Made by a program: the position numbers and the translations under genes
DNA from: Acetivibrionales bacterium
GTDB taxonomy: Bacteria; Bacillota; Clostridia; Acetivibrionales; DTU013
Direction: 5' to 3'
Assembly: GCA_050952225.1 (NCBI GenBank)
Contig: JBMNKL010000001.1
Coordinates: forward strand, 494,589 to 558,588
Length of the DNA: 64,000 bases
Notes under the pieces: generated by a model
Database searches by the model: none
The model's input: the letters and a program-made list of their open reading frames with translations, nothing else
What the model was told of the DNA's origin: nothing
Shown: positions 1-64,000 of the stretch, in pieces
Layout of the letters: every line of letters begins with the position of its first letter
Position numbering within the stretch: the first letter of the stretch is position 1

Positions 1-2
1 TA

Positions 3-1535
3 ATGGTGAAGGGGAAGATGTTCAACGAAATACAAGCTTACAAGCAAATAGGATATACAATTAGAAAATGTGCTCGAGTACCGGAATTGACAGAAAAACA
101 GTCCGTAAGTATTGGAATATGAGTGCAGAGGAATATTTAAAATATCTGGCTGCGAGTCGTGAACGGACTAAAATACTTGACCCGTATCGTGAGGAAATTG
201 TTTCAGAGCTTGAAACCTACCGCTAATATCACTTCAGCGATAATTTATGACCATCTGTGTGAGCGGCATGAGGCTTTTGCACCATCATACAGAAGTGTTC
301 GACTTTATGTAATGACCCTGCGTGAAGAGCTTGGTATACCTACAGAGGTAAAAGTCCGCGCAATATACAGAGGTTTCAGACACCCGCCCGGATTTCAGGC
401 TCAGGTGGATATGGGGCAGAAGGTCATGACCGACCCCTTTGGGAGCAAAACAAAAATCTACATATTCGCCATGGTCATGAGTATGTCACGCAAGAAATTC
501 GTGTACTTTCAGGAGCATCCGTTCAGCGCATCAGAATTTGTAGAGGCTCATGATTTGGCATTTAAATATTATGGTGGCCGGACTCAGGAAATTGTCTATG
601 ACCAGGACCGTGTTATGGCGGTTTCAGAGAACGCCGGAGATCTGATTTGACTGAAAACATTTGAAAAACTACAAAAAGTATGCCGGTTTTCAGATCGGCT
701 CTGCCGAGGTTTTGACCCTGAAAGCAAGGGTAAAATCGAAAGTGTTGTTAAATATGTTAAGAACAACTTCTATCCTGCAGGATATATCATGGCATATCTG
801 TATTAAACAGTGAGGGTCTGGCATGGCTTGACCGTACGGCAACGCTAAGGTTCACGAGACAACTAGAATGGTACCAGACAGACTGTTTACGGAAGAAATC
901 AAGCACTTAAAACCAGTACCTACACTGTCGAAGCCTATCGAGCCAAAGTTGGCGATTATTCGCAGACCAATGTGGTGCATTATCGCAGAATCGCTATGAG
1001 GTCCCTAAAGGCACATACTTCCCCGGAAGGCAAGCCAGGATTGAGGCTGACACCCAAAAGGACATGGTTTCTTTTTATGACAAGGAAACCGGGGAATTAC
1101 TGGCGACACACTACCTTGCCCAAGGAGTTGGTAAACTCATTCGACTTTCAAAGAATATGCAGCGTTTCAAGAGACCAAATATGATGAGCTTAAAGATACA
1201 GTATTAAAAAGAATGGACGGGCTAACCTTCGCTGAAGATTACATAGACGCCCTCATAAAAGCGTATCCAGATATGCCCGTGATCAGCTCCGCATAATGAA
1301 TAGCTGCATTGAACAGTACGGGAAGGATGAACTGGAGAATGCCTTAAATTATTGCGTGGAGAGAGATCTGGTAAGCGCAAATGACTTTCGGGACACCTTG
1401 GCATTCTTCAGGGTGGACGAGCCGAAGATTATTCCAAAGCAGTTTACTTTGCCGGAAAAATATCAGATGGTGAAACCTAAAGTTAGAAGCGTTGAAAACT
1501 ATATACAATCCGGGAAGGGAGGCAGAAGCATATGA
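3..1535 (+). pseudogene. istA: IS21-family transposase IstA, split over several frames
   Basis: Pieces in three frames: N-terminal HTH (MFNEIQAYKQIGYTIRKCA), the DDE region (QVDMGQK...IYIFAMVMSMSRKKFVYF, ORF 159-650), a middle part (YEVPKGTYFPGRQARIEADTQKDMVSFYDKETGELLATH) and the C-terminus (ORF 1296-1535). At least 3 frameshifts or stops. Confidence 0.8.
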
Positions 1536-2253
1536 ACTCGGAAATCATATCGCTGGCAAAGCAGTTTCATATTGGCATATTATCGCACGGGAAATTCATG
1601 CCTCAGCAAGGGTTAAGTAATGAAGAATATTTGCTTGAGCTATTCCGCGCGGAAGCAGAGTCAAGACAAAAAGGCCGAGGCTGAACGCATAAAGCAGGCA
1701 CGATTGCCAACATACAAGGGCTTTGATGAATTCGATACAAATTTTCAAAAAGGGATAACCCGAGAGCAGCTTAACACCCCTGGCAAAGCTGGAATGGATT
1801 GACGGAATGTTCAACCTTGTACTTATAGGACCACCGGGAACGGGCAAAACCCACATAGCTTTGGCGATTGGAAACAAAGCGTGCATGAAGGCTACAAGGT
1901 GTTTTTTGCGACCATGGATACTATGATGCACATCCTAAAGACGCAGGAAATATCACTGAAAAGTGCTGCAAGAGTGAGATGGAATAAACAAGTGCGACCT
2001 TGTGATAATCGACGAAGTTGGGTACTTGCCTGTCAGCAAAACGGAAGCCAATTTATTTTTCGGCTTAATATCACAGCTCTACGAATCAGCTTCTGTAGTG
2101 ATTACGTCAAACAAAGGCTTTGAAGGCTGGGCGGAACTTCTTGGCGACGCTATCCTTGCAACAGCTCTGCTAGATAGGCTGACACATAAGTGCCAGGTGC
2201 TGGACTTTGCTGATGAGAGTTGGCGCCTTGCTCATAGGAAACAGATTTTTTAA
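1532..2253 (+). pseudogene. istB: IS21-family helper ATPase IstB, frameshifted
   Basis: Walker A (LIGPPGTGKTHIALAIGNKA) read across 1800-1870 and Walker B (DLVIIDEVGYLP) in ORF 2002-2253. The fragments lie in different frames (1620-1802, 1881-2123, 2002-2253). Confidence 0.8.
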
Positions 2254-2306
2254 TAGAAAAGTGGTGGGAAAATTGTTTGCCAAAAATGGCCCAATTTTGC
2301 TTGACA

Positions 2307-3448
2307 GTAACACTAAGCCTGGAGGCAATATTTTAACGAAGACGAGATCGAATGGAGATATACTATTTTATAATAAAGCAAACAATGAATTTGCTGTAAA
2401 AGCCTCCGATGAAACAATAAGAACTTATTTTAAACCGACTGATGGCGTTGACGGCAACCCGGTATTAACCATAGAGACAGCCGCATGCAATATACGGTAT
2501 GCGGGAGAGTACCTTGACAAAGAAACGGGCCTGTATTACCTCAGGGCGAGGTATTACAACCCGTACATAGGGAGATTCATATCCGAGGACAGCTACTGGG
2601 GCGAGGACGACAACCCCTTGAGCCTGAACCTGTACACATACTGCTTCAATGACCCCATCCGCTTCATCGACCCGACAGGACATGATCCTTATGACGAAAT
2701 TATCGCAAATGCAAGAACACAGAGCCAGATTAACTGGATTGTAAATGAGATTAATAAACAAAAAGAGATCTGGTTTGTGGAAGAACAGGGCGCAGGGAAG
2801 AACCAGGCAGCATGGACAGACGCCCAGACAGAAGCCAACAGGAGGGCGGAAACATTCAGGCAGCAACTGATACAGCTTGAATCAGGCAATGCGGACACAC
2901 AGAGGCTGATTAAGGATGATTCAAGAGGAATCGCCGGGGCATGGGAAGGCTATCAGCTATCTGTCACTGCAAGATTGGCGGAAGCAAATCCCGGTAGGGA
3001 TTACAGCGATATGATAAGACGGCAGGCACAGGATTATGCACTGGCAGAGAAATATGGCAGGAATGTGATAGGCATTGATGCAAGTATGATTACAGAAGAG
3101 ACCAGGACAGCTGTAGAAAGGTTTGCTGAAGATATAGTTGCAATTTACCGAATAAGTATGGCTGTAAATTCATTATTAGCAGAAGGATATGGAGACTTCG
3201 AGAGCGTACTTGTAACTGCGGATAGTGGTAGAATTGTTTTCCCAGGACCGATTTTTGCATACAGAGGAAATGATTTTCTTCTGTTATCTTATACAGATAC
3301 AAAAACGAGTACCGAACAGGTTAAATCAGCAGAAGAACTGTTGATTGATTTGATAAAGTGTATAGAAAGCTATCCGAAGGCTAAAAAGCACATATTGGGG
3401 TTTTTGGGAATCAGATCAAAAGAGCGGGCGAGGACGACAACCCCTTAA
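2307..3448 (+). pseudogene. RHS repeat-associated core plus C-terminal tip 1; the 5' body is removed or displaced by the IS21 element
   Basis: YAGEYLDKETGLYYLRARYYNPYIGRFISEDS...NLYTYCFNDPIRFIDPTGH is the canonical RHS core end (DPxGH/L). About 255 aa follow it. The reading frame runs directly out of the IS end, so no native start is present. Confidence 0.75.
2599..3025 (+). repeat. 427-bp direct repeat, copy 1 (RHS core end plus 125-codon conserved post-core segment)
   Basis: Aligns without gaps to 3426-3852 at a constant offset of 827 nt. Most columns are identical, with one more divergent patch near 2799-2835. Confidence 0.9.
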
Positions 3449-62529: not shown

Positions 62530-62712
62530 GGTTGGCTGCCTTGTCGATTTTATTCGGGAGATAGAGCTTGTTCATAGTACAGCACCCTCATCGTCGTTGC
62601 GCTTCCTTAAAGCTTAAGGATAGATGTAGTATTACAATTGCTGTGACCTGGACTCTTAGTGACTGATGCATTGTCCTGTTCGCAATGGTACATATAAACC
62701 AGTCAATGCGAA

Positions 62713-63054
62713 TCAAAAAGAAATGCCGGTAAATATCCTGACAAGAGCCATATAGCACAGGGTGCCGCAGCCAATGCTAAGGAGCGTATTCCTTTTCCAA
62801 AGGTGCAGCGCGGCGACAACCGCAACTGAAATCAGCCCGGGTACGCTTCCTGAAATCCGGGTGAAATCAATATCTTTAAGGCAATAGATGACCAGTGTGG
62901 CAATAATCGCGGCAGGAAGATACTTCCCCAGGTATACGACCTTTTCGGGGATTTCCTTTTTGTTTCCGAATATCAAAAATGGTGCAAACCTGACGGCTAT
63001 TGTGCATATCGAAGCAACGGCAATACATAATAATACGTAAAGAGTACCCCTCAT
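62713..63054 (-). CDS. azlD: AzlD-family branched-chain amino acid transport protein
   Basis: 113 aa with 4 TM helices. Its start overlaps the azlC stop by 1 nt. Confidence 0.75.
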   Translation of the reverse strand: MRGTLYVLLCIAVASICTIAVRFAPFLIFGNKKEIPEKVVYLGKYLPAAIIATLVIYCLKDIDFTRISGSVPGLISVAVVAALHLWKRNTLLSIGCGTLCYMALVRIFTGISF

Positions 63055-63752
63055 TATTCCTGTCCCTCCCCGGCATTTTTCTCAACAAACGGCTTTGCGA
63101 TAAGCAAAAACAATACAGTTGCAATCAATGAAGGCATAATGAATTTGCCGCTGCCAAGAAGCAAAAGAAACAGGATTCCGGAAACCAGCCCTATAACTGC
63201 AGGCATATGGCATTTGGAACCCTTCCATTGCTCAATAAAAATTGTAACAAACAGCGCCGTCATTGAAAACTCGATTCCCGGCAGGTCAATGGCCGCCAGA
63301 TGTCCTGTTAATGCACCCGCAAGTGTGCCGGCAATCCAATAGCAATGGTTTAATAAAGCAATGCAGAATGAAGCCTTTTTTTCATCCACTCCATCCGGGT
63401 ATTCACATGAACACAACACTGAATAAGTTTCATCCGTGAGCGAAAAGACCATGTACGGGAATTTTCTGCCCATATCCCTGAATTTTTTGAGGAAAGGCAA
63501 TCCGTAAAAAATATGCCTGCTGTTAATAAAGAGTGTCGTAACTGCAACCGTTGCGATGGACGCCCCCGATGCCAGGAGGCCCGTCAGAACAAACTGCAGT
63601 GAACCGGCGTAAACAACCAGGCTGGAAAGAAGCGCCCACACCCAGTTGTAGCCGGTTTGCTGAAACAAGATCCCGAAAGCGTACCCAAGGAATAAATAAC
63701 CGAACATAACGGGAACAGTCTTCCTGAAACAGAACTTTATCATTATAGCCAT
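63054..63752 (-). CDS. azlC: AzlC-family branched-chain amino acid permease component
   Basis: PVMFGYLFLGYAFGIL ... YAGSLQFV signature, 232 aa. Confidence 0.8.
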   Translation of the reverse strand: MAIMIKFCFRKTVPVMFGYLFLGYAFGILFQQTGYNWVWALLSSLVVYAGSLQFVLTGLLASGASIATVAVTTLFINSRHIFYGLPFLKKFRDMGRKFPYMVFSLTDETYSVLCSCEYPDGVDEKKASFCIALLNHCYWIAGTLAGALTGHLAAIDLPGIEFSMTALFVTIFIEQWKGSKCHMPAVIGLVSGILFLLLLGSGKFIMPSLIATVLFLLIAKPFVEKNAGEGQE

Positions 63753-63907
63753 ACCTCACATTAGCAACCGCGGGCTCGGAAACCGCAATTACAAAAATGT
63801 CCTGATATAACGCGTATTATACCATAGTACGCTTTGCGGCTACAATTAAATTATCGTCAAGGGAGGACGTAATCTCCCGGGCAATCACTGCTTTACTGCT
63901 TTTTGCT

Positions 63908-64000
63908 CTATTCGGCAGCTTTAAAATTGTAAACGGGCTTTATTATATCAACTATCTCTACAGTATCTTGTATATTATCAATTATTTCATCCATCGGCTT
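63908..64000 (-). CDS. 3' end (30 codons) of a gene running off the window; function not assignable
   Basis: Open minus-strand frame ...MDEIIDNIQDTVEIVDIIKPVYNFKAAE ending at TAG (63908-63910). Confidence 0.3.
   Translation of the reverse strand, partial: KPMDEIIDNIQDTVEIVDIIKPVYNFKAAE

Follow-up and report, generated by a model that had tools for sequence, protein, structure and literature searches.

Assemblies built from long reads retain errors that consist of 44% insertions, 47% deletions and 9% substitutions, and those that survive polishing with short reads are located in repeats (PMC8442456). Here we analysed a stretch of 64,000 nucleotides (the window) from an Acetivibrionales bacterium (GCA_050952225.1, contig JBMNKL010000001.1, positions 494,589 to 558,588), in which a first-pass annotation had noticed an excess of single-base frameshifts in otherwise conserved genes and in the istA and istB genes of an IS21-family insertion sequence (IS). 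The window resembles long-read and hybrid assemblies with residual errors in that its insertions and deletions (indels) far outnumber substitutions, its genes are truncated or split as in IDEEL-type truncated-protein tests, and its repeat, the IS21 element, has an error rate far above that of unique sequence, as is known after short-read polishing (PMC8442456). Comparison with near-identical contigs from other samples indicates that the frameshift excess is very probably, for the most part, an assembly artefact, i.e., consensus indel errors in the deposited metagenome-assembled genome (MAG). Among the broken genes, judged from these alignments, only two frameshifts are real features of the species: one in a PilZ gene and one in a GNAT gene that runs into an LCM methyltransferase remnant (GNAT/LCM).

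The window proteins were identified by exact sequence match as NCBI entries MGI6668354-MGI6668406 (locus tags ACOX4M_), encoded on a contig of 889,230 bp. A contig of this length in a MAG suggests that the assembly is based on long reads. A truncated histidine kinase fragment of 236 amino acids (aa) and a membrane protein fragment of 203 aa had exact matches only among the NCBI MGI66683xx proteins. These truncated products are annotated in NCBI, and therefore the frameshifts belong to the deposited record. The proteins of the other four broken genes were missing from the NCBI collection, and these genes may have been left as pseudogenes in the annotation.

For comparison, contigs with 99.4-100% identity to the window were collected from at least six other metagenome samples. 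They were found through the intact window proteins in JGI metagenomes, including 3300053716, 3300061563 and 3300062814, and k-mer assemblies (Logan) of SRR31065934, SRR31066034, SRR31061295, SRR31061296, SRR31066179 and others were also compared; the unitigs of these five named runs match most of the window at 100% identity, and the k-mer unitigs presumably derive from short reads. Together the contigs cover positions 5444-24088 and 26965-64000. All differences were listed and each site was aligned, with one to six covering contigs for each frame-breaking site in a unique gene. An outgroup contig (L035), 85% identical to the window and with a FloA protein of 93% aa identity, the closest among the best 80 of at least 600 matches, was used for three sites only. 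No conspecific appeared among these best 80 FloA matches in genome representatives.

At positions 7673, 9749, 14969, 28941, 28990, 39973, 54961 and 54970, all contigs that cover the site carry an intact allele. One unitig (L021) has 0 mismatches to the window over 5,611 nt, and its sole difference is the frameshifting G of the membrane protein gene. Of the 11 isolated private indels in the window, 10 affect coding sequence, and in no case is the length divisible by three, so their placement appears to be blind to selection. We infer that the private lesions are consensus errors and not mutations. The first-pass annotation had claimed that at least nine non-mobile genes require a 1-nt correction and had proposed comparing the same loci in related genomes. 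Eight of the nine do change frame, two of them with two lesions each, and the ninth, a spore protein gene, is intact. The comparison separates the eight: six are intact elsewhere, and the PilZ and GNAT lesions are shared between samples.

The first of the six genes encodes a protein with Cu_amine_oxidN1 and Beta_propel domains (6393-8961, forward strand). It contains one extra G (G4 instead of G3 at 7673-7676), where a break had been placed at about 7675, and the Beta_propel model (Pfam) is split, with positions 1-115 matched in the first frame and 100-495 in the following one. The gene is intact in the one covering conspecific contig (L020, 855 aa), and the outgroup has GGG with flanks as in the window. 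The SpoOB-type sensor histidine kinase gene (9045-9912, forward strand) was likewise correctly located as broken near 9750. It has one extra base at 9748-9752 (CTTCAAT versus CTTCAT or CTCAAT), and its HATPase_c domain (Pfam) is split across two frames at model positions 7-53 and then 55-104. L020 encodes an intact kinase of 280 aa, and NCBI annotates two proteins of 236 and 62 aa. Near both sites the extra base is the only point at which the outgroup departs from the window. The idea that patches dense in single-nucleotide polymorphisms (SNPs) at these two sites represent low-quality window sequence was rejected, because the outgroup assigns the SNPs to L020.

The membrane protein gene (14663-15374, forward strand), for which a break at about 15000 had been predicted, has GG at 14968-14969 where its relatives have a single G, and two open frames overlap around 14969. 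Four contigs are without the extra base and encode 236 aa. A small strain-variable protein gene at 11716-12195 (forward strand), absent from the first-pass list, is also disrupted. Alignment by tblastn and MAFFT with L019 and L020 revealed about five frame changes (0>2>1>0>2>0), and relative to the closest allele the gene lacks single bases as well as stretches of 4, 8 and 9 nt. Its product is rich in Gly, Pro and Ala; 141, 166 and 77 aa are called in three contigs (L018, L019 and L020), and the length in relatives is 141-166 aa.

The GT4 glycosyltransferase gene (27991-29095, reverse strand) was correctly recognized as broken, but in place of the single lesion expected near 29015 it has two frame-breaking deletions, of an A near 28941 and of a C near 28990. 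Alignment with contigs L009 and L011 also showed a -1/+1 pair at 28737/28744, whose members compensate each other, and, a short distance upstream of the start, an extra C at 29099. The gene reads in three frames, and only positions 40-170 of the Glyco_transf_4 model (Pfam) are matched as it stands; it is intact in L011 (368 aa). In the AraC/GyrI-like regulator gene (39188-40067, reverse strand), an extra C at 39973 that is not templated (TTCT versus TTT) puts the N-terminal 30 residues in another frame, which agrees with the break proposed near 39975. The extra C occurs in none of six contigs, and the regulator is intact with 292-294 aa in L010/L011 and 285 aa in L009.

The msmX/ugpC-like ABC transporter ATPase gene (54212-55350, forward strand) has two inserted bases, a C at 54961 and a G at 54970. 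The frame is indeed broken, but the A5 run at 54954-54958 that had been blamed is unchanged in all relatives. The OB_MalK model (Pfam) is matched at positions 1-16 and then 18-53 across two frames, and five contigs encode an intact protein of 371 aa. Further small insertions at 55317-55379 garble the 3' end, so that the window has lost the C-terminal motif TEKTI[IV]N, with which each of the 15 closest orthologs listed (of 120 retrieved) ends. Compared with the five contigs, all these insertions are enclosed by a private patch at 54817-55515, in and after msmX, which we tentatively read as a mis-polished or mixed-allele stretch. Within the patch a terminator hairpin is weakened, and its error profile is unlike that of the IS21 element. 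Adenine mutagenesis in the manner of diversity-generating retroelements was considered for the patch and rejected, because A is changed on both strands and such elements do not target genes of this type. A scan of metagenome contigs with the msmX alleles gave no match, and the species was not found in that collection.

The IS21-family element occupies positions 1-2312 (forward strand), with istA from about position 3, istB to about 2254 and the left end beyond the window. Several frameshifts had been noticed in istA and istB, and the situation proved worse than that. A tblastn frame walk with the IstA and IstB proteins of a Niallia IS21 element, which at 67% identity was the nearest match in a plasmid search and served as protein guide only, revealed repeated frame switches in both genes. 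No close copy of the element was found on plasmids in that search, and a metagenome-contig scan with the IS21 alleles gave no match to the copy in the window. The stitched IstB led to an intact protein at 97% identity on a contig of 2,420 bp (L116), where both IstA (512 aa) and IstB (238 aa) are intact. The window element is 98.7% identical to this intact copy and differs from it by 12 deletions and 8 insertions, i.e., 20 indels, and by 4 substitutions. An in-frame stop at 648 is only apparent, as it is created by a -1 indel at 647 that a +1 at 657 compensates. For a share of indels among natural differences of 10-30%, the binomial probability of at least 20 indels among 24 differences is 7e-17 to 1e-7. 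At the level of sequence, the 20:4 ratio of indels to substitutions is incompatible with natural decay and matches the long-read consensus error expected in a repeat. The error rate of the element is about 0.9% (20 indels in 2.3 kb), versus about 0.02% in unique sequence (about 11 isolated indels in about 56 kb).

The spectrum of the indels differs from that of polished nanopore assemblies, which err mainly in homopolymers. With the intact alleles taken as truth, the true run lengths at 26 single-base events are 0, 1, 2 and 3 at six events each, and 4 and 5 at one event each. The events are thus not concentrated in homopolymers, as only 2 of the 26 lie in runs of at least four; most private indels are insertions without a template or changes of a single base where the run length is 0-3. 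The homopolymer signature on which the first-pass annotation had relied is thus mostly wrong: the only longer runs involved are the G4 of the beta-propeller gene and the T8 of the PilZ gene, and the latter is not an error. The suspicion of unpolished long-read error itself is supported for the six listed genes, whose lesions are private, and for the IS21 element with its 20:4 ratio. It fails for PilZ and GNAT/LCM. An intergenic run at 62521-62529, after a tRNA-Cys gene, is T9 in the window and in L003 and T8 in L001, L002 and L006, and is the sole homopolymer-length difference in the covered sequence.

If consensus error accounts for the private lesions, as is very probable, the consensus of the source MAG would still hold single-base indel errors. 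These would be dense where polishing is hardest, namely in the multi-copy IS21 element and in strain-variable stretches (the gene at 11716-12195, the 5' end of GT4 and the 3' end of msmX), and sparse but present in unique sequence, as in the beta-propeller, histidine kinase, membrane protein and AraC genes. As the errors would be placed without regard to genes, about nine in ten would fall in coding sequence and break the frame.

Several observations weigh against this explanation. The private indels do not resemble the homopolymer-length errors typical of a well-covered nanopore consensus. The evidence at some sites comes from few contigs: the beta-propeller and kinase sites are covered by one conspecific contig (L020, about 2% diverged) in addition to the 85%-identical outgroup, and the GT4 site is covered by two contigs only, both with a different allele. 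The msmX patch, which departs from the pattern of long-read residual errors, has 11 substitutions, all of them G or C in the window versus A or T elsewhere, and contains insertions only and no deletions. Furthermore, of the three amino-acid changes in the patch, two lead to residues that are common in orthologs and one to a residue seen in none of them, so that part of the patch may be a real allele. At any single private site, a genuine strain-specific mutation is possible.

A related explanation, which we consider possible but clearly less likely as a general account, attributes the indels and chimeric patches to the collapse of co-existing strains into one consensus and not to raw read error. 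A published account describes how a consensus of collapsed alleles creates apparent frameshifts (PMC8445201). In the window, indel clusters fall in the strain-variable stretches 11700-12200 and, within GT4, 28207-29123, and two SNPs (39908 and 39911) lie beside the AraC site. The gene carB contains a SNP-dense patch at 45974-46072, and one k-mer unitig (L026) begins exactly at its edge, at 46073, which suggests that co-existing strains formed assembly bubbles in the source samples. Strain mixture may therefore contribute to the clustered cases. However, the errors in IS21 need no mixture of strains, the indel at 14969 has no nearby polymorphism in the closest strains, and in the region of the msmX patch the other five contigs hardly vary. 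The SNPs near the beta-propeller and kinase sites, moreover, are those of L020 and not of the window.

Genuine recent pseudogenization in this strain, through a mutator or relaxed selection, would mean that private indels have inactivated about 10% of the genes, and we regard this as unlikely. The lesions do stand in the deposited record, the broken genes are otherwise well conserved, and real frameshifts occur in the species (PilZ and GNAT). A long contig of the species from JGI 3300053716 also has private disruptions, among them a tandem duplication of 29 nt. Nevertheless, the private lesions of the window are found in no other contig, including unitigs with identical flanks, and the 20 indels versus 4 substitutions of IS21 are the opposite of natural decay. 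A mutator would strike long homopolymers, yet the covered A8, A9, T8 and T9 runs are untouched except for the strain-variable T9 at 62521-62529. The indels are not accompanied by nonsense substitutions, large deletions or a variety of lesion types. Decay, which had been offered as the alternative to assembly error, thus applies to PilZ and GNAT/LCM, whose lesions are common to the sampled population, and not to the other six listed genes.

The JGI 3300053716 contig (161 kb; L001/L009/L018/L023) belongs to the same species and has its own private gene disruptions, which ties gene breakage to particular assemblies and not to the species. Relative to the window, it carries the 29-nt duplication in argB (window 51928), GG insertions at 28535 and 30732, and an extra A at 36397 that truncates YitT; its GT4 gene is in three pieces and an amidase gene is split.

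Slipped-strand phase variation, in which simple repeats would switch the genes on and off reversibly through the frameshifts, is very unlikely: the PilZ gene is broken within an A8 run and the intergenic run at 62521 is polymorphic between T8 and T9, but the length of the PilZ run is constant across six contigs, none of the other lesions falls in a repeat (run lengths of 0-3), and the affected genes as a class are not surface or contingency-type loci.

The two frameshifts that are shared between samples require a different explanation from consensus error. The PilZ (YcgR-like) gene (50590-51266, reverse strand) is shifted at an A8 run, seen as T8 at 50833-50840 on the forward strand. This lesion had been listed correctly, but it is real and not an error, since the T8 is identical in six contigs, including unitigs that are 100% identical to the window over 5-7 kb. 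The PilZ model (Pfam) is matched at positions 2-40 as the sequence stands and at 2-75 when T8 is read as T9. The orthologs (79-84% identity) in all related species are full length (221-249 aa), with a complete PilZ domain in one frame. One of them, L118, has AAGAAAAAA in frame where the window species has AAAAAAAA, and the window species has therefore lost one base in PilZ. Downstream of the lesion no stop occurs in 80 codons, and the ratio of nonsynonymous to synonymous substitution rates (dN/dS) is low, 0.15 versus 0.065 upstream. The lesion is therefore either recent or bypassed.

The plain reading is that PilZ is a recently fixed pseudogene. PilZ and GNAT/LCM both resemble the fixed pseudogenes of free-living bacteria, with the same lesion in every sampled strain and intact orthologs in related species; PilZ differs from them in its open downstream frame of 80 codons and its dN/dS of 0.15. 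Like a contingency locus, the PilZ gene has a homopolymer inside its coding sequence. Unlike such loci, it shows no length variation in six contigs, its run lies two-thirds into the gene, and the other lesions of the window are not in repeats.

Programmed -1 frameshifting and transcriptional slippage on A-runs are known from dnaX, insertion sequences and the poly-A tracts of endosymbionts. The PilZ gene resembles these systems in having a phased slippery motif and an ortholog-like shifted product. The site reads GC A AAA AAA U, so that the A_AAA_AAU/A8 slippery motif lies in the zero frame, and the candidate slippage stretch is GCAAAAAAAAUUC. Slippage by -1, or an mRNA with one additional A, would give CKKKFD, as in orthologs, and a complete PilZ domain; once repaired, the product can be aligned with orthologs through this site. 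The gene differs from the known systems in that the shift is not conserved, the related species being in frame, and in that no stimulatory hairpin or other structure beyond that of shuffled sequences was found downstream (z = 0.45). Expression across the A8 run, whether ribosomes shift by -1 on A_AAA_AAU or the transcript itself is altered by slippage, is improbable. If it did occur, a truncated product of 151 aa and a full-length product of about 225 aa would provide a built-in dosage control of a cyclic di-GMP receptor.

The GNAT (Acetyltransf_3) gene (41415-42408, forward strand) has its frameshift near 41740, within the interval 41720-41790 that had been suspected, and runs into a truncated LCM methyltransferase remnant. 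Acetyltransf_3 (Pfam) is matched at positions 1-91 in the first frame and at 1-138 of 138 after a one-base correction, and the LCM remnant covers model positions 119-185 of 187. An initial idea that the GNAT gene has an 8-aa deletion was softened, because the one-base-corrected protein spans the whole Pfam model. Both the frameshift and the LCM fragment are identical in contigs of five samples (L010/L029 and L030-L032), and products of 140 and 181 aa are called everywhere. By their sequences, GNAT/LCM look like old gene remnants, and PilZ and GNAT look like ordinary fixed pseudogenes. The frameshift set of the window holds no new biology, the small residual interest being slippage-dependent PilZ expression.

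Public annotation is affected by these errors, since the NCBI MAG (proteins MGI66683xx) has a split histidine kinase and a truncated membrane protein. Decay would be overestimated in studies that address gene content, pseudogene load or "genome decay", with about 10% of the window genes affected. Pending the reads, pseudogene labels should not be trusted for the beta-propeller, kinase, membrane protein, GT4, AraC and msmX genes, the gene at 11716-12195 and the IS21 element; those of PilZ and GNAT/LCM stand. The analysis also provides a test that needs no reads, in which assembly error is distinguished from real decay by two comparisons: with near-identical contigs of other samples, and, for the ratio of indels to substitutions in a multi-copy IS, with an intact copy.

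The ninth gene listed by the first-pass annotation, an alpha/beta-type small acid-soluble spore protein (SASP) gene (60916-61089, forward strand), is complete from its ATG with 57 aa and is not frameshifted. The same 57-aa gene with a SASP match (Pfam) occurs in eight other contigs, four of which (L004, L005, L007 and L008) are 100% identical here, so the A7 run at 60920-60926 is not a lesion. Elsewhere in the window, a flavin mononucleotide (FMN) riboswitch (36932-37061, 124 bits) lies upstream of two genes for S components of riboflavin transporters of the energy-coupling factor type. A toxin-antitoxin pair at 34390-35018, consisting of an antitoxin of the ribbon-helix-helix (RHH) family and a PemK/MazF toxin, is intact in all relatives. 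An open reading frame of 126 aa at 5791-6171 is spurious, as it overlaps tRNA-Met and tRNA-Glu genes (5896-6060). Directly after the IS21 copy, RHS/polymorphic-toxin C-terminal cassettes occupy 2183-5136 and contain a direct repeat of 427 bp with 95% identity (2599-3025 and 3426-3852). An HEFGH zincin-like motif and a weak match, below the cut-off, to Peptidase_M10 are present in the second cassette.

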